A stretch of 62,915 nt of DNA, counting the filler, from Atractiella rhizophila (lineage: Eukaryota), in the NCBI GenBank assembly GCA_021432655.1. It is 3 parts of 3 records of this genome, joined end to end, with 100 filler letters (N's around TTAATTAATTAA, not from the genome) between each part and the next. Parts side by side here need not be neighbours in the genome. Positions count along the whole stretch, not along the records: positions 48,467 to 62,915 come from MU271322.1; 2 more parts are not named here. One strand, 5' to 3'. A model generated the notes under the pieces. It searched no databases, was not told the DNA's origin, and was given only the letters and a program-made list of their open reading frames with translations. The first letter of the stretch is position 1. Every line of letters starts with the position of its first letter. Shown in pieces: positions 16,757-61,295 of the stretch. A program made the position numbers and the translations under genes.

Positions 16757-16781
16757 NNNNNNNNNNNNNNNNNNNNNNNNN
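16757..16781. other. Assembly gap (25 N)
   Basis: Run of 25 N. Confidence 1.
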
Positions 16782-18803: not shown

Positions 18804-18903
18804 NNNNNNNNNNNNNNNNNNNNNNNNNNNNNNNNNNNNNNNNNNNNTTAATTAATTAANNNNNNNNNNNNNNNNNNNNNNNNNNNNNNNNNNNNNNNNN
18901 NNN
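18804..18903. other. Artificial contig linker
   Basis: N44 + TTAATTAATTAA (stops in all six frames) + N44. An identical linker is at 48367. Confidence 0.95.
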
Positions 18904-25080: not shown

Positions 25081-26752
25081 TCATACGACTTTGGCGAGAT
25101 GTGATCTGAGCGGTACATTCTTGCTCCCTCCGGTCTTCGGGAAGCCTTCCAGCTTCACTCCCTTCCTGAAGAGCAGACAATGGGTCGAACCTCCAAAGTG
25201 GAACCTATCTCCCGACAACGTGAATGAACTCCATGCCTTCCTTTAGCAAGAGATAGGCTGTAGAGGACGTACATTCCGATCTCATCTCCTTTCTTGACCT
25301 TCTGCCCGACCTGTTAACCATGGTGAGTTTTATAAGAGAGAGAATGCAGGAAGAGGCAAACCTTGACTCCGATGTCGCAAGTGCTGACTTCCACCATTCC
25401 CACGCCCACAAAACACGTCAGTCCAATCTTCTTATTATCGGCTTCGATAAATATCAGCGCGCGGGTCGCCACCGCCGCCTGATACGCCTGACTAGTGACC
25501 TCGCCCTGCGCATCCGCGCCGTCCTTCATCTCGTCGAAATCTGAGAACAACGGTTCAGAGTAATACGTGCCATCGATATTCCGAACTTTGACGATGGTTC
25601 CAGAGACGGGGGAATGCCATCGATGGTAGGACAGGGATGAGAGGAAAGCCTGGTAGATCGTCCCGCCTACGAATTGGTCCGCCCACTCATCGTTGTCCAG
25701 CATGTCATTGACAGAGTACGGCTGGCCCTTCGTCCAGAACCTATCTCGCGCCTTCACATTGTGTGCGACCGCATACGGCACGCTCTCGCATGCGTTCGCG
25801 ATTACGTCGTCGTCGTCTGGACTAGCAACTGGACGGACATGTTCGCGGAAATGGCGTGTGAAGAAGTCGTCCCAGCTCTTAAATCCATAGTGTTTCTTCT
25901 CCTTCTCGCACTCGTATATCTCCTCAAACTTCCTCTTCGGTCCCTCGACGTTCGCGGCTTCTTCGAGGTGTTGGAGACCGTGAGGGGACAGCCAGCCGTC
26001 GAGAACGTCGGCGGAAGCTGGGGAGCGGAGGTAGGACCCCCAGGCGTTGAGGATCTTTTTGAATGCTTGGTTGAGTTGGGGGTCGAGGAAGAGGGAGAAA
26101 CCGGCTTTGGTTCCCATTCCCCAGTCGAGGATCGCATTTATTGGGATCCCTGCATCCTCCTCAGTTCGCACAGCTTGAGGTATAGGAGAGGATAGACGCA
26201 CCGACTAGACCGACGCTCTCCCCTTTGTCGGACCACGCTGGAGCTGTGGTAATGACGTGGTTCAGGACTTCGAGGAGGTGGTGGTAGTCTCTTATCTCGG
26301 GATTTCCTTTTGGGTCCCTGTTGTAAGGCGCCTTGTTTGGTACTATCCCCAAATAGTCCAGTATCAGCCTCTTTCCAAGCAGTAACGAAGTCATCAGAAG
26401 TAAACGATCCCAGCTAACTGGCACAGGGATGTGTTGCCGAAAGCGAAAGACAAAAGAGGGGAAGGACATACTCTCAGAAAACATAGTCTCGAAAAGCATG
26501 AAGATCCTCGTATTGTTCTCAATCAAATCCTTAAGGCCTTTGATGGACTCATCAAACTTCTCTGGCGGAGTAGGATTGGATTCGACATGTTTCAGTGTGG
26601 ACTGGAGCCAGGATCGATGATGCTTATGGTCGCGGGGTAGCCAACCACCGTCGCTGTTTCCCAATGCCAAATGGTGAATTTCTGCAGGGCAGGATAGATG
26701 AAGAGACAGACGTCTGGAATCTTTGTTGTTCGCTTGATTTGTCGTTACCCAT
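25081..26752 (-). CDS. Phosphatidylserine decarboxylase-like protein (PSDC-domain/PsiD-like pyruvoyl decarboxylase)
   Basis: GGWLP, GLVG-IPINAILDW, YGFKSWDDFFTR, NACES, KGQPYS, YQAFLSSLSYHRWHSPVSG, GMVEVS, FHFGGSTH self-cleavage motif. Confidence 0.93.
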
Positions 26753-39526: not shown

Positions 39527-42500
39527 GTTCCCCTGTCCTCTCCCAACCTCTTGCAGTGATGAATATGCGAGGTTTACAGTCCGAGAAGTGGGCCACTGTC
39601 CAACAGTGGTTCTCTTCTTCCTTTTGTCGCATTCTAGCTGTCACTGAAGACTGGTTCATTCAGTCCCGCACAGCCTATAGTTCTTCTCCTTATTTTTTAA
39701 TAGGCTCAAAGAGACCGGAGGCTCAGGAAAGGAGGGATGTCGGCCATGAGAATGGAGGAGTGATGCTCTTTATCGACCATTTCCCTCAAGTCCGGAGTTG
39801 AAGGTGTCGCATCTGGAGTGAATTGGGTCTGGTTGAAGCTCTCTGGGAAGAGTCTCGCATTCGTGTATCTTCCTCCGTCTTTCTCGAATGCTCGCTGTCG
39901 GCAACTCCTCTCTGAACTCCCCCCAGTCGATCTGGTCGCCGGCGACTTTAATATTCGATTCAACTTAACTGTGTCCCCCTCTGATAGGGTTTCCTGCATC
40001 GTCACTTGGATGGCAATGCGTCAGCTGTTTGTCTCTTCTCCTCAGTCTACTCATCCCGCTCTCCTTAATCCCCTCGATCACATCTTCACTTCGCCTTCAA
40101 CTCCTGTCCACTCACTTTCACTCATTCATCAGTCCTCCTTATCTATCTCCTCCGACCATCCTCTCCTCCTCTGCCAACTCTCTCTCCCTCTTCTCCCTCG
40201 CCTTGTAGATCCTGGCCTCTCCCGTCCTTGCATCTCCAACATGGACATTCCTTTCGCTACCGAGGTGCTCCTCTACGCGTACTCCGAGCTGTCCTCTGAT
40301 GTGGAAACTCTCTTGAAACTGAGCTGGAATCTCGCAAGAGAGGCAGCTGGTCTAGGGGAGGTGGAGAAGCTGCAAAGTATAGTGGACAATGCTGATTTGG
40401 CAGTCTACAATGCTGTTGATGTGGTAGCGCGGTCAGTGTTGGGCGAGTATAATGCCTCTGCAGTTCGGCTGGACCCCGACTTTGTGCTCGACGAGATCTC
40501 TCGTTCTCGCTCACCTCTTGCTGCCGTCCGCCTCTTCAAGAAATCTCGTCGCAGTGGCCCTCGTCTCCTCGTTCCATCCGCTGCTGGGGCTCAGATTGGA
40601 CTCACTGCCAGATGAAGCTGTGCAGCTTTGGAGCAGCATCTACGAAAGTAACCTCCCCCCTCCCCAGCGGCCTCAGTTCGAGGGTCCTGTCTTCGATGAG
40701 CACGGCTGGGGGCTTTCTCACCTCTTCTCCTCATCAGCTGTGCGGAGCGCTCTTGCTCGCTATCCAAAAGGCAAATCCCCTGGCATTGATGGCGTCCATG
40801 CTCGCCTTCTCGCGGCTCTCTCGTGTTTCTCCTCAGATGAAGAGAAGGAAAAGGCTCCATCTGGCTTCTACGTCCTTGCTGATCATCTCTCGTCACTGTT
40901 CCGCCTTGTTGCTGCTACTCGTCGGACTCCTTCTCGCTGGGGAGAACAAGTGATGCCCTTTATTCCTAAGGGTAAAGATCGCCCACCCACTGCTGAGGAC
41001 AGCCGTCCCCTCTCCCTCTTTGTCATGTTTCGCCGCCTGTGGGAGATACTCTTCCTTCCTGCCCTCACCAGCGAGGATCCCTCCAGTTGGAGCTTCACCC
41101 ATATGGCTCAGGCCGGCTTTAAACGCGGATTTTCTTGCTTATCAAACTTGCTAATAGTTGATTCTGCTGTACGGTCTCACCAGCGCCCTATTGCGATCTT
41201 CCTGGACTTCGAACGTGCCTTTCCGTCAGTTCGACACGACATTGCCGACGCCAACTTCAAGTCTCGAGGTGCTCCACCAGCTATACGCGAGCTCGTCTGG
41301 CAACTTTGCACTCATAATGCTATGGCAACAATCGTAGTCAACGGCGAGCGCCAACTTCCCATTGCCATTCATCGCGGCTACCCACAGGGTGGTCCGATCA
41401 TTCCCATGCTCTTTGATCTCTTCATTGACCCACTTGTCTGCCTCCTTAACCCGCTCCTCCCTCGCTCACTTGCCTCTCCTCTCCTCGCCTCCCAGCCATC
41501 ACCCTCAAGCTCCCAGTCGCCCTCTCCTCTCCCGCCAAATGCCTCTTCCCTTGTCTCTGCTCCCTCCTTTGCAGATGACATTGCCTGCATCCCCAAAACT
41601 GTCGATGAAGGCCAGCATCAGCTCGATACAGTTAGCAGGTGGTCTCATCAGAACGGGATGAAGCTCAATATCCCAAAATGTAAAGCTGTTGCCCCCTTCC
41701 CTGTTACTCTTTGTATCAACGGCACTCCAATTCAGCAGGTCAGCAGCGCAAAGTATCTCGGCATGTCTCGGGGTCCTGACGGGATTGACTTCGAGGCCTG
41801 GCTTTTGGAGAAGTCGGACAAGCAAGACCGCTTCCTGAGGAGCCTCCAGGTGGTTGGGAATGGTTGGAACGAACTAGTCCGCTTGGCCAATTACCGCACC
41901 TTCGTTCGTCCCATTTCAGACTATGGGGGCGGACTCTTTCACTACTGGATTGTTTGCGACGAGCGTCGACGCTCCTCCTCTCCCGGAATGCTGGCGGCCT
42001 CCCAGCACTTCAAACTTGCAGTCTCCTGGATAGCTGGGGTATCCACTGACCGCTGGAAACTCGCATCCTCCGCCACAGGCCTACTTCCCCCTCGCGAGCG
42101 CTTCCGCCAGCTTGGTGCTGGTCTCACAGCTCACCTCCGCTCCCTTTCCCGCTTCAACCCAGCCCTCCCCCTCGTTGTGTCCCCCTGGCCAACCGCTCCC
42201 ACTAGCTCAGACATCGTGCCACAAATCCAGACTTGCGAACTGTTTGCTCGCTTTCTCAATGCTCAGGCCAACGAGGAGGTCAACGGTTACATTCTCACAC
42301 TTCAGGCATTCCTTCGTCACGAACGGCTTCGCCTCCTGAGCTCATCTGAGCTTGTTGGCACGCTAGGTTCCCTCATCTCGCCTCTCCAGCGGACGGCTTC
42401 TCTCGTGGACAGGATTCTCCTTATTCCTGATGATGCCTTGCGGAGGCTCGTCATCAAGTGGAGGATGGGACGTTTCGGATTCAACCGCCCTTGCTCTTGT

Positions 42501-42725
42501 GGTCTCCCTTTTTCTCGTGGTCATATTAGCTGTTTGATTTCATCCTTAGGTTTCTTTTCTTCTGCTAATTCTCCCTTCACGGATCTCTCTTTCTTTTCCA
42601 AAGTGCCTCTTCCCTCTATTCCCAACTCCACTCTCTTAGATGCTATCATTGGTCATAGAAATAGTGCTTTCTCTTCCGTAGCCTATCAGACACTTCTTGT
42701 TTGGTCTGATTTCTTACACAGATAA
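39523..42725 (+). CDS. LINE ORF2 endonuclease-reverse transcriptase (frameshifts near 39790 and 40600)
   Basis: APE motifs NMRGL, VTEDW, GGV, YLPP, GDFN, LDHI, SDH. RT motifs KSPGIDG, RPLSL, QAGF, FLDFERAF, GYPQG, FADD, KYLG. Confidence 0.9.
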
Positions 42726-48366: not shown

Positions 48367-48466
48367 NNNNNNNNNNNNNNNNNNNNNNNNNNNNNNNNNN
48401 NNNNNNNNNNTTAATTAATTAANNNNNNNNNNNNNNNNNNNNNNNNNNNNNNNNNNNNNNNNNNNN
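48367..48466. other. Artificial contig linker
   Basis: N44-TTAATTAATTAA-N44. Confidence 0.95.
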
Positions 48467-48955: not shown

Positions 48956-50426
48956 ATGTTCCGTTCCACCTCCATCCGTCGGAGCGCCACACCCACTGGG
49001 CACTCTCGTTCCGGGAGCAACGCAGGAGGTACAGGAACCGGCGCGACTTCGTCATCTGGGGTGGGAGTGACGATCGATCATCCCGGGCTGGTCAACATGG
49101 GCAACACCTGTTTCCTCAACTCCGTCCTCCAATCTTTGTCGACCTCTCAACCCCTCATCAAAGCCCTCCAACACCCTCCTCCTTCTTCACCTTTCCTTAA
49201 TGGCGTCAGTCCTCCGGAGGGAGAGGAGGTCCAGTTAGGCATTGGGAGGGAGTTTAGGAGGGTCATGGCCTTGTTGGCGGACATGGAACCGCCGAATGTG
49301 GCCGTAGAAGAGAAAGAGAAGGAGAAGGTGCATGGCAAAGATAAAGACAAAGAGAACGAGTTAGAACAGAAACACGATCCCGACCCGACTCCGCTGGCTC
49401 GCGTCGCTCCCCTGACCGTACCAGACACTCCACAATCCATCGCTCAGTCGCTAAAGATCACCACGGATCCTATTCCCGAAGAGTCTCCAAGCATTCAATC
49501 TACGAATTCAGATACGATCGAAGGCGTCAAATCCAGAATCCTCTCTCCCGCTCCTTCCAGCGCTCTCATACAATCCCCGGATGGGCCGTTCAGTCCAGAA
49601 GGGAAAGAGGAGAGTGGGAGGTGGATCACGTTTGAGAGCATCGATGAACCTTTGCCACCTGTCGAGACGAAGGTGAAGCGGTTGTCGGAGGAGTTTAAGG
49701 AGCTGGAGAAGGCGAAGGAGGAGCAGAAATTGAAGGAGAAGGAGAAGGAAGATAAGAAGAAGGCGCTCCTCGATGCGCTCGATCCCTATTCCCCACCTCC
49801 TTCCGCCTCCTCCCATCTTTCACCTCCTCCATCCACCTCCCAGTTACCGTCCAGACAGCCGTCGCCGAGACCAGACAAGGAAAAGAAGAACGTGTTCACA
49901 CCGAAAGCTCTATTGAAACAGATCGCTAGGGTCAGGGAAGAGTTTGGAGACTATGAACAGCAGGATGCGCATGAGCTCTTGATGGTCTTACTTGGAGGGA
50001 TGGAGACGGAAGAGGGTGAAGTGAGTGTTTCATTTGGGAGATTTGGTTGTCGAATGGAAGCAGGAAGAAAGCCTCAGCCTTCACTTCGTCCGTGGAATTG
50101 TGCTAGAGTGGAAACTGATCTTTTTCTTCCTTTAGCTCATCCGTAAAATCTCGCCGTCCCCTGCTCGTCCTCCCAAACAACGTCGAGCACCAAACGTCCG
50201 TCGAGGTACCTTGAAACCGAACGGAGCGAAAGTCGGCAACCTGTCCGATTCTTCGTGTTCGACTTGCTCTTCGTCCAGCGAACGGAGTGGGGAAATGGAT
50301 AGATGGCATCATCTAGAACAGATACTTGCCCTGTCCTTAGTCACCTATTTTCAATGTTGTGTCAGATGTAGACGCATACGAACTGCACCTTCCTTGTCTG
50401 TCCTGCAATTTGGCTGGAGAAGATAG
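48956..50426 (+). pseudogene. Ubiquitin-specific protease (peptidase C19), N-terminal half only
   Basis: Cys box GLVNMGNTCFLNSVLQSL and EQQDAHELL. Intron at ~50021-50135. No His box was found downstream. Confidence 0.7.
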
Positions 50427-51194: not shown

Positions 51195-54100
51195 ATGAAC
51201 AACCATTCCCGATGCATCTGCTGCCTCCGCCGTTCCACATCTTACGACGCTGACGCTGAGGTTGCAAAACCCGCTGATTCATTTCCGAACGAATCAAATG
51301 GGAGTCAACCGAAGTTACACCCATCACAACCTGCGTACCCCCGCGTAACGCTACCAAGTGTTCCTCTATCAAATCAACCGATCCCTCCGCCGTCCATATC
51401 GCATTCCGAGCCCATCAGAAATACGATGATCGACCGCGACTTGCAGATACGGCTTGCGGATATCAAGAAGGTTAATACCAAAGGTCTTCGGATCCTTTCG
51501 ATCGACAATGGAGGCGTCTGTGCCTTCTCGTGCCTTTACATGCTCGAAGCCATCATGGAGCAAGTAGCCGATCTTCTTCCTGGGAAGCCAGACTCCAGAA
51601 CCCTTCCCCCATGCCAATTCTTCGACCTCATCTGCGGCACTTCGACCGGAGGATGGATTGCTTTGATGCTTGGGAGGTTGGGGATGACTGTCCGAGAGTG
51701 TATGGATGCTTTCGACGAGATCGTAAGGGAGGTCTTCTCCGAGAAGACGCTTCGTACAGAGGGCTCATCCGCTTATTCCGACAGAGCCTTTGAGCGCATT
51801 TTTGAGAGGATCGCCAGAGATCACGCCCCACCGTCCGAAAGATCGTTGCTCTCCACCTTGGACGATGCGCGCCTTCCAATGCTCGATCCCAACTTCGACG
51901 AGCGATGTCGAGCCTTTGTCATTGCGACTTACGGAGCCAACTCAGTAGTTCCTGTAGAGATGCGCACTTACCATCTCCCCTCTGGTCGCAGGTCTGTCAA
52001 GTGCTCCATAGTAGAAGCTGCGAGAGCGACATCCGCTGAACCGACGTTCTTTCCTCCGATCACTCTCGACAGGACAGAGTATGTCCTGATTGGCAACAAC
52101 AACCCATCCTCTTTCGCTGCGACAGAGGCAAAGAGGATCTGGGGGGATGGGACTGAAGTCATTTGTTTCCTCTCCTTGGGAGTTGGTATTCGTTCCACAG
52201 TAAAACTTGGGTCGACGCCGAACAAAATCAAGGATGCCTTCAAAAAAGTCGTTGAAGACTGCTCTCGCGTCGACAAAACAATGAAGGACGAAATGCGAAT
52301 GCGTGGGATCGGCCACTGCTACCATCGATTCAACGTCGACACGCTGGGTTGTGTCGAATGGGACGAGTTTGAGAGGATGAAGGAAGTTGTTGGAGAAACG
52401 AAAGCTCACTTGGAGGGACTGCGTCATGAAATGAAAGCCGTGGCAGAATCTATAATCCTCGGTATGCTTTTCGGTCCGCCTTCATCATGGGCTAATGAAA
52501 AGTCCGTCAGCTCAACCTACTCGTGTAGCGGTTCATGAGAAAGAGCCTGTCCCGCCACGAGGACTTTGCTACGGGCGAACGAAGGAGATTGAAGCTGTGC
52601 GGACGGCCATTCGAAACGGTCAGCACGTAGCAATCATAGGTTTAGCCGGAAACGGAAAATCGACGGTCGCACTTGCTGCGTTGCATGACGAGCTTGTGAA
52701 AGCTGCTTTCATAATTCGAGAGGGAGATTTTCTGGTCGAGCGACGCTTTTGGGTCCGTTGTGACGGCTTCACTTCCTTCACTGCGCTCGAGAGCCATCTG
52801 CGTTCCCATGTTTTCACTCTACCTCGCCAGTTGGATACCACAGATTTGATGGCCGTCGCTGATTTTTTTCGGAGCAATAAATGTCTTCTCGTCTTGGACA
52901 ACTTTGAGACGCCTGCACATTCAGATTCGAAACGGATGCAACATTTCCTTCAGGCCGTTGTTGGGGAACCTGGAGTGGGTTCTATTCTCGTCGTTGCCAT
53001 GCGTGGGCAGCGTGTGCCCCTTATCGACGTGAATAGCACTGCCTTTGCGCCTGTAGTCATTGGCACGCTGAAGGAGGATAAGGAAGCAGCAACCAATACC
53101 TTTTGTCACTTCTATGAGAAAGCTCGTGACCCGCAAAATGTGGCGGTCACACAAGACATTTTATTGTGCTTGGATTACCATCCACTGTCGATCCGCCTTT
53201 TTGCTCTGAGAGCACGTTCCGATCCTTTCTCGAGTGCAGCAGTCCTTCTAGAAAAGTGGCGGCATCAAGCCAGCGCAGTTTTTTCGGAAAACGCTGATGG
53301 CAGAGACGGTACACCTACTCTAGACGTATCGCTCAGATTTTCTCTCACGTCTCCCATTCTCAAAGAACTGCCCGGCAGTTCCCTCGCCCTATCATTTCTT
53401 TCTTGGTCTCCAGATGGTCTCCTGCTCCTCGACCTGGAAGACTTACTTGCTGGAGATTACCGTGCCCTTGTCTCCATCGTGGACGTTGGTCTTGCAGACG
53501 AGGTTCCTGGGTCGAAGAGACGCTTGCGTATGCTCGCACCTGTTCGAAAATATATGAACGAACTTGTTTTGAGGCGAATCGACCCATTCTCTTTGCATGT
53601 CGCAGAATCGCTTCAGCCTCTCGCCAATTGCCTGTTGGGCAGAGCACAAGAAAGAATCGCCCAATTTTATGGGACGAAGAAGCAAGACGCCTTACTGGAG
53701 TTCAGAGATGAATATGTGAACCTTCAACAAGTCGTTTTTGACAGTCTACTGCATGTTCCAGAAATGAACGAAAGCATTGAAGCATTCGTGTTGAAAAATG
53801 CAAACATCCTCCAATTCAAGAGCTTTGATACAACGCAACTGCTCCAGAGAATGCTATCAAGAAAGGAGTTGTCTACTGTGGTGATGAGTCGCTTGCAGTT
53901 CTACCTTGGAAAAGAACTTGATTTTCGAGGGTATACTAGTAGAGCCTTAACAGAGCTGCATGACTCTATGAAGAACAGTATAAGCATTAGACACCGTGCA
54001 GACTGTGTCCAAGCCATTGCGAAGATCGATTTCCGATGCGGAAGGAACGACGAAGCGCTGGAGCGATTCAAGGACGCAGAGGAGCTGTACATCTCGATGG

Positions 54101-55356
54101 GAGATCGACAGGGCAGAGCAAACTGTGTCCAATCCATGGGGGACATCGATTTCCAATGCGGGAGGAACGACAAAGCGCTGGAGCGATTCAAGCAGGCAGA
54201 GGAGCTGTTCATCTCGACGGGAAGTGCACAGGGGAGAGCAAGCTGCATCAAATCCATGGGGGACATCAATTTCCGATGTGGGAGGAACGACAAAGCGCTG
54301 GAGCGATTCAAGCAGGCAGAGGAGCTGTTCATCTCGACGGGAAGTGCACAGGGGAGAGCAAGCTGCATCAAATCCATGGGGGACATCGATTTCCGATGTG
54401 GGAGGAACGACGAAGCGCTGGAGCGATTCAAGCAGGCAGAGAAGCTGTTCATCTCGACGGGAAGTGCACAGGGGAGAGCAAACTGCGTCAAATCCATGGG
54501 GGACATCGATTTCCAATGCGGGAGGAACGACGAAGCGCTGGAGCGATTCAAGCAGGCAGAGAAGCTGTTCATCTCGACGGGAAGTGCACAGGGGAGAGCA
54601 AACTGCGTCAAATCCATGGGGTACATCGATTTCCAATGCGGGAGGAATGACGAAGTGCTGGAGCGATTCAAGCAGGCAGAGGAGCTGTACATCTCGACAG
54701 GAAGTGCACAGGGGAGAGCAAACTGCGTCAAATCCATGGGGGACATTGATTTCCAATGCGGGAGGAATGACGAAGTGCTGGAGCGATTCAAGCAGGCAGA
54801 GGAGCTGTACATCTCGACAGGAAGTGCACAGGGGAGAGCAAACTGCGTCAAATCCATGGGGGACATTGATTTCCAATGCGGGAGGAACGACGAAGCGCTG
54901 GAGCGATTCAAGCAGGCAGAGGAGCTGTACATCTCGACAGGAGATCCACAGGGCAGAGCAAACTGTGTCAAATCCATGGGGGACATCGATTTCCGATGCG
55001 GGAGGAACGACGAAGCGCTGGAGCGATTCAAGCAGGCGGAGGAGCTGTTCATCTCGACGGGAAGTGCACAGGGGAGAGCAAGCTGCGTCCAATCCATGGG
55101 GTACATCAATTTCCGATGTGGGAGGAACGACGAAGCGCTGGAGCGATTCAAGCAGGCAGAGGAGCTGTTCATCTCGACGGGAAATGCACAGGGGAGAGCA
55201 AGCTGCATCAAATCCATGGGGTACATCGATTTCCAATGCGGGAGGAACGACGAAGCGCTGGAGCGATTCAGGCAGGCAGAGGAGCTGTACATCTCGACGG
55301 CTGATCAACGTAGGGCCTACTGCCTCGACCGCATCCCGATGATCAAGGCACACTGA
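51195..55356 (+). CDS. NLR-like protein: patatin-like domain + NB-ARC/STAND NTPase + TPR array (~1370 aa; intron 52462-52510)
   Basis: LSIDNGG, FDLICGTSTGG, ARATSAEPTFF (patatin). Walker A GLAGNGKST, Walker B LLVLDNFE, YHPLSI. A 49-nt GT..CTAAT..AG intron joins the two long ORFs in frame. Confidence 0.93.
53995..55300 (+). repeat. 11 x 120-bp (40-aa) highly conserved TPR repeats
   Basis: GAGCGATTCA recurs every 120 bp from 54061 to 55261. Confidence 0.98.
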
Positions 55357-58300
55357 ACTGGATGGACGGAGGTGAGGACCCATTCACAAGGCCATCGTGA
55401 GTCATGCTTGATATCCAGTACCTATGTTTGGGCAAACATTAACCTAGCTCATTAGTACAGTTTCGTAGGCAAAGCGCAATGAATGAACTATGCTAACTCG
55501 TATAAAGAGAACTTTTGAGCTTCATGAAGAAGTGCGAATGGATTCAGGGTCAACTCCATGTAAAGAGAGAAATCAAAGGAAATTACGTTCAGTCATGATT
55601 CTCAGGACATGTAGACACTCAATCCTAACTGAAATACATCCTCTTTGAGGTCATGAACCCGGTCAGGCTTGGCTCCACGCCATCATTTAATGACAAGCGC
55701 ACGCAACTTTGACCCGAAAGTAACCTTCAACATTCTTGACGAAGAACTCCGTCGATGATGAAGATTGTTATCAGACCCACGTTTAGGCATTGTATCATAG
55801 ACATACTGCTCATGTGTAAGTGCAAAGACACTTACAAACATATGAGCACAACTTCAGTACGATGGTCCATGACCATATCCAAGCTATCAATGATCTACCA
55901 CGATATCCCCAATGACTTTCTCTCCTCAGAAGGCATATCAAACCACCTCCCCATCTCCTCTACTCCCGAAAGCAGGTTGACCTTCTCCTTCCCTCCAATT
56001 TCCCTTGATTCCACAATCTCCACACCTCTATCGTCCAGCTCTCCTTCCAACTCGAAACACTTGCCCTCAGCCGTCCGTCCGCGACTTCCAGCGCACAGAA
56101 CCACTTTTGCAATTTCTTCTTTTCCACGTACGATTCAACCTTTCCAAGTGCGAATCCTCGTCCTCCCACCTCACAGCCTGCTCTCGTCACCATGCCTGTG
56201 CTGCAATGGCTGTGTCGCTTTGGGCACCAGCTTTAGGATCGTCTTCATACGATCTTTCTCTAAGAACTTCATAGTGTGTGTTCGTGTCGGAGCACAGGAG
56301 GACTGACTGCAAGAATTGGTGTTTTGGTTGGATTTTCAGCGGAGGAGGATGAGCCCTCACACCTCCCTCACCATGTGCAATAGAATGAAATAAGTTATGC
56401 CATCATGATCCAAATGCTTCCCCATTTCTGTAACCCACAGTGATCCCCCTGTCTCATTGAACCCTTATTAAAAGGAACTTTGTGAGCATCGAGCAAGCCA
56501 CTGCGCGTTTGTTGTTGTTGGGGGATAACATTTGCCCATTTGTTCTCAACAGAAACGATGAAATATAGAACTAGGCATTCAGGTCCAGTCACTGCAATAA
56601 AGGCATACTCTAGTGGTTAACTTATGCTGGCCTGACCTTGGCGTGCAAACTGCCATTCATCATCTTTGTCACAGATTTCTCAAATCAGCCCAAGAATCCT
56701 CTGATGTGCCCATCAGTTAACAATCATCTGCTCTGATGATACACAATGCACCACGGTTTGGTTGCATCTCAATTCAAAATCTGCCTTCCACGCAAGCTTG
56801 CAAGCACCTTCGTATCGGATGTTTAATCTTCTTTGTATTCACATCATCTGACGTGTAGTTGTTAGATTTCTGAGATGCTCCCTCGGTATTGTGTTAAGTT
56901 ATCTGAAAGAAGAATACAGGCTGATGTTTGTTGAGGCTTGACCCTCTTCCTTGAACATGTCAAAGCAGAATCGAAGCAAGAAAAGCCAAATAACGTCACA
57001 TTTATTCTTCCCCGCGCTCGCTTGCTTGACTTGATGCTGCTCTCGTCCTAAACCCTTATTGCCTATAGGAATACGCAATCTTTCGCCATTTCTGCCAGAT
57101 TTCTTGTCCTTCAGATAAGTTGTCGTTCAGGCAAGTTTATTCTAGAGAACATATAACTTTTGATTAATTACCCCAATGCTGTATTTCTAGATCTCTACCA
57201 CCACTGTTATTGTAAATAATAAATCTTAGGTACTAATACACATTCATCCTTCTCGGTATCGATTTGATGCCCATCGTCAAAAATAATGCTCATGGCCCCA
57301 AGTCTCGCTGTCTTGACCTGAGAAACTAGTTGTCTTTAACCGTATGAATTGAGATAGGTCAACTGTTTTGCCAGCGATTATCTCTGCTCTGCAACAGTAG
57401 AGTCCTTTTGATTCGTAAAGAGCTTTGACCTAATAACACAATTGCATTAATTTTTGTCTGTGAATTTGGCACGAACCATAACACAGGCCATCATTAGCAC
57501 CGGCCATCATTTGACACCTTTTCAACCCAAACGTGGGGTCAACGACGTAGAGCCAGGCCGAGAAAAAGTGCTGTTCGTTGGAAGTTATGCAGAAGTGGCG
57601 TTGACCTCGTTCGCTGCACTCTCTGTTCGAGTTATTCATAGCCAGTATGTCAACAGGAGGGTAAGCCTAAACTCCAAGACCAAATTTGGGATTCTTTGCC
57701 CGTTCTCCATGCAGAAAGAGCTCAGTGTTTTCGAAGAGCATCATACGTTTGATACCCATGCTGTTACCTGGTAGGTTTCCCATGCTTCAACATTGAGGTA
57801 TAGGATTTACCGTCTAGCTATGGCAGTGGAATTGGAAGGGGAGAAAGGATGGGGGCTGGAAGTGGGAAACTCTCACAATGCACATTGGGATCAATCAGGG
57901 GATGGTGACGATGGAGCTTTCATAAGAGAAGCAGTAAAAAACTGGTTGCCATTCCGTTATTCTTTGAGTACAGTCCCATGAGTACGTTTCCATTTCAGAC
58001 GACGTAGATAACATTGAAGAAAGGTATGGGCTATGTCCCTTTGCATTTTTCCCGCTTGGCGCAAACGAGCGCAAACAAGTACAAAAACTTCTGTTCTGTG
58101 CGCTGATTTGCGCACATTGACCAACTTCGCTCTGCGACATTGCTCTACCATGCATTCAGGGCAATGACGGAGATAGCACATTCTTATACCTTCAGACTTT
58201 GCTGACAGGCTGACAGTAAGGCAACAAGACATCTAGATTTAATATCTGCTTGTCTCCTTTCTCCTTCAAAGCTTGACACAGGAGACACAACACAATCATG

Positions 58301-59145: not shown

Positions 59146-61295
59146 TCATAGCAGTCCTAACGACGAGCAGAAAGGGTAATGTGGCTCAGCACCCAACCCT
59201 TTTGTGAACACGTCCGCTGACATCTCCGAAGTAGGGACCCACTTCATCGCAATTTCCTTGCCCTGAACCCTTTCTCTCATGTAGTGATAATGCACGCCGA
59301 TGTGCTTCGTTCGATTGTGGTTTGCGGGATGTTTCGCGAGGATTATTGCGCTCTGATTGTCACCCCGTATTATCGTTGGGAATCTCTGTTCAAATCCAAG
59401 TGTCCTCAGGATCTCTCTCAACCATACCGCCTCCCTCACAGCCAAAGAGAGTGCCATGTATTCGGCTTCTGTAGACGAGATTGCTACCGATTTCTGAGCA
59501 GTCGAAAAACAAGAGACCATCCCGCCCGCCAGATTGAAATGGCAACCAGATATTGACCGTCTACTGTCGATGTCCGCCGCATGATCCGCATCGCACCAGC
59601 CCACCAGTTCATTCGATGTACCCTTCCCATCCCATCTTAAAACCCTTCCGGTTGTCCTTTTTAAATATCGGTAAATCCTCGTTACTGCCTTCCAATGTCC
59701 CATCCCCAGGTTTACCATATACCTACTCACTCGATTTACGGCATATAGAATGTCTGGCCGCGTGTTGACTGCCAGATACATCAACGCGCCAACTGCCTCC
59801 GAGAACGGTATCCCTCCCATTTCCGCCTTCTCCCGTTCAGTCTTCGGTGACATATCGTTTGTCAACTTGTCCTTCGGATCGCAAGGTGTGCTGACAACAG
59901 AATGGTCCTGAAACCGTATTTCGCAATACATCTCTTGATGTAGTCGATCTGATCCATCGTTATACGCCGATTCTCGCGATCCTGGGTAATCCGCATCCCA
60001 AGGTACTCTCCCACTTTGCCGTGTGTAACTCTCTTGAAGACCACCACCATTTTCTTCATCAAGCTGTCTCGCAAATCCGTCGACGTCAATGCAACGAGTC
60101 CATCGTCCACGTGTAAGAGTACTATTACCAGGCCCCTATGATCCTGTCTAACGTACATTCCGTGATCAGCCTGTGATTTCACGAATCCTTCCTCCTTCAT
60201 CATCGTGCTGTATTCTTCGTTCCAACTCTTCCCCGCCCGTTGCAACCCGTAGAGACTCTTCTTTACTCGGTAAACCCAGTCAGGATGTTCGGGATCAACA
60301 AGGCCCGGTGGCTGCTGGACATATATCTCTTCCTCTAATTCTCCATGTAAGAATGCATTTCCAACGTCGAACTGTCCCAGGGTCTATCCGTTTATGGCGG
60401 CAAGCGCAAGGACAACTCTGATGGTGGACATGCGTACCGTCAGAGCGTAGGTTTCCGTAAAATCTCGACCCTCCACCTGCTTATTTCCAAAGGCAACTAG
60501 TCGCGCCTTATATTTCAGAAATTCGACCCCCAACTTCCTCTTCTCGCTTAACACCCACTTCAGTGGAATAGGAACGACTCTGTCCGGTTTCGGCTGTAGC
60601 GGACCCAAAACCCCCATCCCTGTGATTTGTCCCCACTCCCCTCTGCATGCTCCAGTCCACCCCCTCTATTTCTCGAACACTGTGAAGTAAGTTGAAGGAG
60701 GAAACCATGTGATATGTGGCACCGTGTCATGTATCATCTTCAATGTAGCCAGCGCAGTTCGCGGTGGAAGAATGTCCTCATGCCAATCGATTACTCGGAA
60801 CTTTGAATCCAGAATGGGTCCATCATCTCTTGCCTTCCCAGCAAATGCTCCGTTCCATACACACCACACCCCATCCATTCCCGAAGGCATCTCCCAGTTC
60901 TGTACCCCAAGAGCGCCTCCCATGACATCTCTGTCATATTCTTCATATTCTATTCCTTCAGACGAATATCTGCATTCTTGGTTGAAGGCTGGATGTTCGG
61001 GAGGGAGAGGATTGTCTTTGCCATAACCAGGGACATAGATCGGGAAGGTGGATAATGCAGCAGGATTGGCGGGAAGGTGTCGTCCCCGCTGTTCAAACGC
61101 CTCCTGTACATAGGCAGGAACCCAAGCAAGGTCATTAGGTCCGAACACGGCTGATCCATCTCCAGTTCCATCAGCTCTCCCGTCGTCGATGTGCACGTTA
61201 ACGGCTCCCACAATGTTCTTTGTTCCGTCATCGTCTACCATCGTATTCAATCGAGAGACAGCCAGGCCACTGACGTTCCATTGAGTGATACCCGT
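59146..61295 (-). pseudogene. Copia pol remnant (RT-RNase H) with in-frame stops and one frameshift
   Basis: In frame with gag. Stops at 60666 and 60384, frameshift near 59920. Confidence 0.88.

Follow-up and report, generated by a model that had tools for sequence, protein, structure and literature searches.

The 62,915-nt stretch of Atractiella rhizophila DNA that we analyzed (the window; assembly GCA_021432655.1) carries a gene for a NOD-like receptor (NLR) at 51195-55356 on the plus strand. We found that the N-terminal patatin-like domain of this receptor lacks the catalytic Asp of its family. Two overlapping open reading frames (ORFs) make up the gene. The first (51195-52538) matches Pfam Patatin (PF01734; E 1.8e-14, 54.8 bits against a cutoff of 27.7), and the match ends at profile position 177 of 191, ahead of the Asp block. 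The second (52495-55356) matches a STAND NTPase and many TPRs in Pfam; nSTAND1 scored 29.7 bits (cutoff, 27.1), AAA_16 scored 24.3 bits, under its cutoff of 32.6, and TPR_12 gave an E of 5.3e-47. Contigs of run X1 and of RNA run X4, a root metatranscriptome, skip exactly the intron that joins the two frames; the shorter side of the junction spans 109 letters in X1 and 60 letters in X4. The spliced coding sequence is 4113 nt long and encodes 1370 residues, with its sole stop codon at the end. As in fungal NLRs, a central STAND NTPase with a P-loop is followed by highly similar C-terminal TPR repeats. We concluded that this gene is an intact, transcribed patatin/NB-ARC/TPR NLR of an Atractiella-like basidiomycete. 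The nearest database proteins are all named Atractiella rhizophila by NCBI. The best of them is only 77% identical, and therefore the window's own protein is absent from those proteins.

We compared the motif blocks of the patatin domain, named as in the patatin literature, with the blocks of its relatives. The domain has the GxSxG of block II and the A-S-x-x-x-P of block III; it lacks the G-G-G-x-[RK]-G of block I and the D-G-[GA] of block IV. In a HMMER alignment with solved patatins of the cyclic oligonucleotide-based antiphage signaling system (CBASS), EYVLIG--NNNPS of the window falls opposite EYVDGGLFANDPS, and a profile of 87 relatives aligned the same blocks to the CBASS patatin structures. 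In the window, the FFPPITLDRTEYVLIGNNNPS stretch ends at about 52109, and the ...ITLDRTEYVLIGNNNPS stretch ends near 52109. An earlier note on this DNA had described an in-frame loss of DGG here. We found that the Asp is missing but that DGG was not cleanly excised: judging from the alignment, block IV has changed from Asp to Leu298 and from Gly to Ile299, and the loop to the NNP motif is two residues shorter. In block I, Gly is replaced by Asn105, Arg by Cys109, and Gly by Ala110.

The altered positions are otherwise strongly conserved. Outside the clade described below, D occupies the Asp column in 213 of 233 relatives, R or K is found in 190 of the 207 filled cells of the oxyanion Arg column, and G is present at the column of Asn105 in 197 of 205 relatives. 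Taken together, the motif changes are far from chance. Translation placed DNGGVCA, GTSTG, and the block IV stretch where the earlier note had put them. The note was also right that the nucleophile elbow is intact and that two catalytic motifs (blocks I and IV) are altered with the frame preserved; all 1370 codons remain open. Its view that a Ser-Asp lipase cannot work canonically here is supported as well.

Table 1. Features of the NLR gene (window positions; residues in protein numbering)
Feature	Position	Strand	Basis
Exon 1: 80-residue N-terminal extension and patatin-like domain (residues 81-422)	51195..52461	+	ORF, Pfam PF01734, AlphaFold, Foldseek
Block I, oxyanion loop: DNGGVCA in place of DGGG(V/I)RG	51504..51524	+	translation, alignment to relatives
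Block II, nucleophile elbow: GTSTG, Ser150 kept	51636..51650	+	translation, alignment
Block III: ATSAEP, with Glu282 (52038-52040) where relatives carry Ala; Pro kept	52026..52043	+	alignment
Beta-hairpin: ITLDRTEYV, Asp292 (52068-52070) in the turn	52059..52085	+	DSSP on the model
Block IV: Leu298-Ile299-Gly300 at the site of the catalytic D-G-G	52086..52094	+	HMMER alignment, relatives
NNP motif after block IV, kept	52098..52106	+	alignment
Intron, 49 nt, GT..AG: in-frame joint of the patatin ORF with the NB-ARC/TPR ORF	52462..52510	+	spliced contigs
Exon 2: NB-ARC/STAND NTPase and TPR repeats, including the stop codon	52511..55356	+	Pfam
Walker A/P-loop of NB-ARC: GLAGNGKST	52639..52665	+	translation; nSTAND1 and AAA_16 matches
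Walker B-like motif of NB-ARC: LLVLDNFE	52885-52908	+	translation
TPR array: 10.6 tandem copies of a 120-nt (40-residue) unit, 94% matches, no indels	54025..55300	+	Tandem Repeats Finder

To place the window domain among its relatives, we aligned the patatin domains of 257 proteins from three protein searches. The catalytic Asp is missing from the window protein and from 16 A. rhizophila proteins that are 43 to 77% identical to it (P0001 to P0006, P0053 to P0058, P0060, P0124, P0125, and P0241). The loop is two residues shorter in 15 of these 16 paralogs, with A, L, or T at position 298, and P0006 has a larger gap. Position 298 holds A in 11, L in four, and T in one of 16 clade sequences, so that no conserved substitute for the Asp is found there. 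Both N223 and P224 of the NNP motif (domain numbering, to which 80 is added for protein numbering) are present in 17/17 clade members. In block I, Asn105 is found in 17 of 19 clade sequences, six N-terminal fragments counted, and almost all read DNGG. Cys109 is found in 11 of 17 clade and fragment sequences, and Arg persists in three fragments. Ser150 is invariant (19/19, clade and fragments). Trp154, next to the elbow, is specific to the clade, with 20/20 there versus 2/230 elsewhere.

We found that the Asp-less proteins belong together. In a quick maximum-likelihood tree of 51 domains, from which P0058 and P0241 were left out, the 15 members of sufficient length formed one clade with a Shimodaira-Hasegawa-like approximate likelihood ratio test (SH-aLRT) support of 97. 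The same tree placed this clade as sister to two further A. rhizophila proteins, P0059 and P0127 (SH-aLRT, 99). P0059 (323 amino acids) has retained DGG and the Arg, and its elbow reads GTSIG; in P0127, a third variant, Ala occupies the Asp site. Because the Asp-less loop is common to one monophyletic paralog clade, the Asp was lost a single time, ahead of the expansion that produced at least 17 paralogs. The whole sister-gene family has the loss, which is thus inherited; neither a sequencing error nor a one-off mutation accounts for it. The earlier note had asked whether paralogs share it and had raised a private allele as the alternative; the alignment shows the former, with the Asp gone from all 16. 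Among 80 metagenome loci kept from 422 relatives (25 to 59% identical in the best segment), none belongs to the clade and none has the Asp-less loop. Those that cover the Asp site all carry D, except L020, L029, and L061, which are intron-broken or truncated. On these sequences, the loss has so far been seen in this fungal lineage alone.

The patatin fold is intact. An AlphaFold model of residues 81 to 422 had a mean predicted local distance difference test (pLDDT) score of 91.8 and a predicted template modeling (pTM) score of 0.92, and its top Foldseek matches were CapV, CapE, iPLA2-beta, and potato patatin (patatin-17), at TM scores of 0.70 to 0.74. We then took as conserved those columns that reach 85% conservation or more among the 233 relatives outside the clade, which gave 52 columns. 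We found that 40 of these 52 columns reach the same level within the clade. Of the 12 that changed, seven are located within or adjacent to block I, III, or IV or the SLGTG turn: in domain numbering, 25 (G to N), 29 (R to C), and 30 (G to T) in block I; 201 (A to S) and 202 (A to A/E/D/H/T) in block III; 218 (D to A/L/T) in block IV; and 250 in the SLGTG turn. The Asp-less variant, then, has kept the fold, the elbow with its Ser, and most positions that are invariant in the family and has lost the dyad Asp and the phosphate-binding Arg of the oxyanion loop.

Compared with the closest paralog, P0001, the window protein is 76.6% identical in the patatin domain and 75.4% identical in NB-ARC; the 80-residue N-terminal extension is 35% identical. 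By this measure, the patatin domain diverges no faster than NB-ARC. A domain drifting after loss of its function should not show such a pattern of conservation. The best reading of the alignment is that the Asp-less patatin variant is lineage specific and selectively maintained, not decaying.

We also made a partial base-level check by placing contigs of four public runs on 51195-53200. Only two indels were found in this interval, at 52497 and 52850, and contigs of the three runs with depth at 52060-52110 showed no indel there. The listed contig pieces over 52060-52110 are 91 to 92% identical to the window, with none above 99%, and for this reason they are probably paralogs. The contigs of RNA run X4 leave 51999-52333 uncovered and have no bearing either way on the Asp region. 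A cryptic intron starting from GTATGT at 52080, which would remove YVLIGNNNP, was rejected; all paralogs conserve this stretch, its frame is open, and the contig splice table shows no joint there. Elsewhere, the window has six N runs of 25 or 44 bases, four of them in two close pairs (2218-2242, 16757-16781, 18804-18903, and 48367-48466). We read them as gaps or masked sequence in a draft assembly; the one closest to the NLR gene lies about 2.7 kb upstream of it.

With somewhat more confidence than doubt, we favor the reading that the clade carries a maintained, remodeled patatin module without Ser-Asp chemistry, which acts noncatalytically or at most weakly catalytically when the NLR oligomerizes. 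We infer from the motifs that the domain no longer hydrolyzes phospholipids by the canonical Ser-Asp mechanism; it would instead be a noncatalytic or at most weakly catalytic output module that binds lipids or membranes. According to this model, the TPR array would recognize a ligand, NB-ARC would oligomerize the receptor, and the patatin-fold domains, once clustered, would target membranes or a downstream protein, a step for which the dyad would not be needed.

Several observations weigh against this model, and "lipase-dead" is itself a conclusion drawn from motifs and a predicted structure. Ser150 is invariant across a clade with a long tree, and the other fungal lineages that lost a dyad residue usually lost the Ser (26 of 29 degenerate relatives). 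Retention of Ser150 hints at a remaining role for it. The conserved, clade-specific Asn105 and Trp154 near the predicted active site fit respecialization as well as loss. Finally, an acid or His at position 282, where relatives have Ala, could provide a replacement base in nine of 17 clade members, the window protein included.

These observations lead to the main rival, which we consider possible though unlikely: the active site is rewired, and the protein is still a serine hydrolase or acyltransferase, with Ser150 activated by Glu282 in the window's subclade or by an acid supplied in trans from a neighboring protomer upon oligomerization of the NLR. Position 282 holds E in five clade members (the window's subclade), D in three, H in one, A in seven, and T in one (n = 17). 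The nine with E, D, or H are the window protein, P0001, P0002, P0004, P0005, P0056, P0057, P0124, and P0125. Outside the clade, the position is Ala in 199 of 233 relatives, and the six residues most often found there include neither D nor E. By the hairpin topology of the model, residues 282 to 288 would be, like position 298, on the active-site side of the hairpin. Yet the Glu282 site cannot serve the whole clade, because eight of the 17 members have no acid or His there, and the phosphate-binding Arg is gone as well. The residues at 282 may provide a base that stands in for the lost Asp, or they may reflect a relaxed constraint on the active site.

The earlier note had suggested a different rewiring, through the Asp of the LDR motif (Asp292), and this was not supported. 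DSSP on the model gave hairpin strands at domain residues 209 to 211 and 214 to 217, with Asp292 in the two-residue turn between them, and this turn would sit at the hairpin end distal to position 298. Asp is found in the column of Asp292 in 16 of 17 clade members; 28 of 145 canonical relatives have it too, and one of these, P0007, has an intact DGG. Asp292 is not a compensating novelty, because these canonical relatives carry the same Asp. From the alignment and the model, Glu282 is more likely than Asp292 to be a base.

A more speculative proposal, about which we are doubtful, is that Ser150 lies in a preformed pocket without a base and becomes competent only in the oligomerized receptor, through an acid in trans or a repositioned Glu282, or else that the domain kills by binding lipids independently of catalysis. 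If true, an incomplete site completed on assembly, or killing through lipid binding, would be a new way to hold off and switch on a patatin-type immune effector.

The earlier note had also proposed that the protein is a sensor or decoy NLR whose signal passes through a partner. In the form of an Asp-less domain that is an inert homotypic adaptor and recruits or activates a competent patatin or a helper NLR, we judge this improbable. The sister protein P0059, with its DGG and Arg, could be such a patatin, and passages of PMC12480259 describe dimers, tetramers, and filaments of CapV as an example of a patatin-fold enzyme. However, P0059 may be a truncated model; exon 1 of the window gene, read alone as an ORF, would likewise yield a 447-amino-acid "patatin-only" protein. 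When we searched the 62.9-kb window by tblastn with the patatin and NB-ARC parts, only the gene itself matched, and neither a further patatin nor a further NB-ARC was seen. Pfam matches of nine long ORFs of the window were to a UCH hydrolase, to LINE-type elements, and to other unrelated families, with no NLR family among them. The fungal NLR gene plp-1 is linked to the polymorphic SNARE gene sec-9. We took flank ORFs from stop to stop, of at least 70 residues, at 42.9 to 51.3 kb and 55.7 to 62.8 kb, and left out eight of the 79 that overlap the NLR gene or the UCH gene. Pfam found no NLR or SNARE family in the other 71, a search that could miss an intron-broken gene or a partner outside the window.

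It is more improbable still that the family is decaying, its genes heading toward pseudogenes under relaxed selection after catalysis was lost. Two or three catalytic positions are gone, residues 298, 109, and 282 vary within the clade, and many A. rhizophila models are partial. Against this, the window gene has an open frame and spliced transcripts, the units of its TPR array show 94% matches, the patatin domain equals NB-ARC in conservation and keeps most family-conserved columns, and at least 17 clade members have the domain intact. Finally, although the window contains N-run gaps, we give almost no credence to the missing DGG being an assembly or sequencing artifact or a private allele of this assembly, given 16 independently annotated paralogs of another assembly that lack the Asp and have the same loop length, and contigs without an indel at the site.

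The neighborhood of the NLR gene holds several other features. Over the TPR array, long ORFs occur in other frames and on the minus strand (53901-55292 and 53947-55383). They stay open because of the 120-nt repeat and are most likely by-products of it, not genes. Upstream, at 48956-50146 (plus strand), lies a ubiquitin carboxyl-terminal hydrolase gene (UCH; E 4.4e-16) with a long, low-complexity, Lys/Glu-rich insert. A retroelement without long terminal repeats, resembling a long interspersed nuclear element (LINE), occupies 39818-42725 (plus strand); one ORF matches Exo_endo_phos_2 (E 1.2e-4, under the Pfam cutoff), and a second, of 757 residues, matches RVT_1 (E 2.8e-20). About 4 kb downstream of the NLR gene, a Copia-type RVT_2 match at 59865-60665 (minus strand) extends over two adjacent ORFs (59865-60383, E 2.7e-34; 60387-60665, E 3.6e-12) and is probably a degraded retroelement. 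An ORF at 25314-26201 (minus strand) matches PS_Dcarbxylase (2.7e-24) and PSDC (3.2e-23); it is an ordinary lipid-metabolism gene unrelated to the NLR finding.

Patatin-like phospholipases are common death effectors in bacterial immunity (CBASS CapV) and fungal immunity (PLP-1). The patatin effectors studied kill through the Ser-Asp dyad. In the Atractiella family of at least 17 proteins, constraint is evident on the fold and on the Ser, yet the Asp and the phosphate-binding Arg are gone. Two possibilities follow: that the output domain of an NLR works without the textbook chemistry or that the patatin fold has a different active-site solution. The Asp-less clade also offers a natural set of variants on what the patatin domain of an NLR must do. 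Because of this clade and the 29 of 221 fungal relatives that lack part or all of the dyad, "patatin" annotations in catalogs of fungal NLRs are suggested to mix active enzymes with noncanonical or pseudoenzymes. We found no paper on Asp-less or pseudoenzyme patatin domains in fungal NLRs among titles, abstracts, and main-text passages. The main text of PMC9815663 has "patatin" twice and "catalytic," "inactive," and "Atractiella" nowhere.

Among known systems, the window protein is closest in architecture to PLP-1 of Neurospora crassa, HET-Z1 of Podospora anserina, and VIC2 of Cryphonectria parasitica, which are patatin/NB-ARC/TPR NLRs of allorecognition cell death. The window protein shares their three parts, with a patatin-like domain at the N terminus, a P-loop-bearing NB-ARC, and TPRs at the C terminus, and passages of PMC12881547 and PMC10197012 describe this as the architecture of fungal NLRs such as PLP-1. 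In contrast to PLP-1, whose cell death needs patatin activity according to passages of PMC12881547 and bioRxiv 10.1101/2022.04.03.486892, the window domain has neither the dyad Asp nor the oxyanion-loop Arg. On its sequence, it would not be the catalytically competent patatin domain of a PLP-1/SEC-9 type of system.

CapV and CapE of CBASS (e.g., PDB 8zr9, 9kh6, and 9ion) are the best matches in both structure and sequence, with a phmmer E of 1e-12. In passages of PMC12480259, these immune effectors are switched on by oligomerization or filament formation, and AbCapV has the dyad S58/D192 and R21, the latter proposed to hold or stabilize the lipid phosphate. The window domain has Ser150 but Leu298 and Cys109 at the other two positions. 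CapV is a stand-alone protein activated by cyclic dinucleotides, whereas the window domain is the N terminus of an NLR. Plant pPLAIII provides a precedent for a noncanonical catalytic motif retained in a patatin subfamily; as passages of PMC7284883 describe it, this natural subfamily has GxGxG instead of GxSxG, kept across species. It differs in that pPLAIII lost the Ser and is not an NLR domain, while the Atractiella clade kept the Ser and lost the Asp.

Among fungi, 221 relatives outside the clade cover both dyad sites (14 more did not and were excluded). Ser and Asp are both present in 192 of them, and 29 are degenerate: 17 lack only the Ser (mostly GTGTGG), nine lack both, and three lack only the Asp, namely, P0144 (Gloeopeniophorella), P0237 (Myriangium), and P0127 (Atractiella). 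In total, 26 have lost the Ser; a GTGTGG or GSGTGG elbow is found in many of the relatives, several of which are NLR-like (P0011, P0030, P0032, P0034, P0038, P0039, P0043, P0126, P0193, and others are examples of the Ser-less elbow). The GTGTGG forms include Ceratocystis HET-E-1-like, Aspergillus, and Mycena proteins. Because these 29 relatives are without the Ser, the Asp, or both, loss of patatin catalytic residues recurs in fungi. None of the 29 combines the two-residue-shorter loop with DNGG, the pair that defines the Atractiella clade. By these comparisons, the clade is unusual: it has retained the Ser but neither the Asp nor the Arg. We concluded that the observation is real and that the change is inherited.

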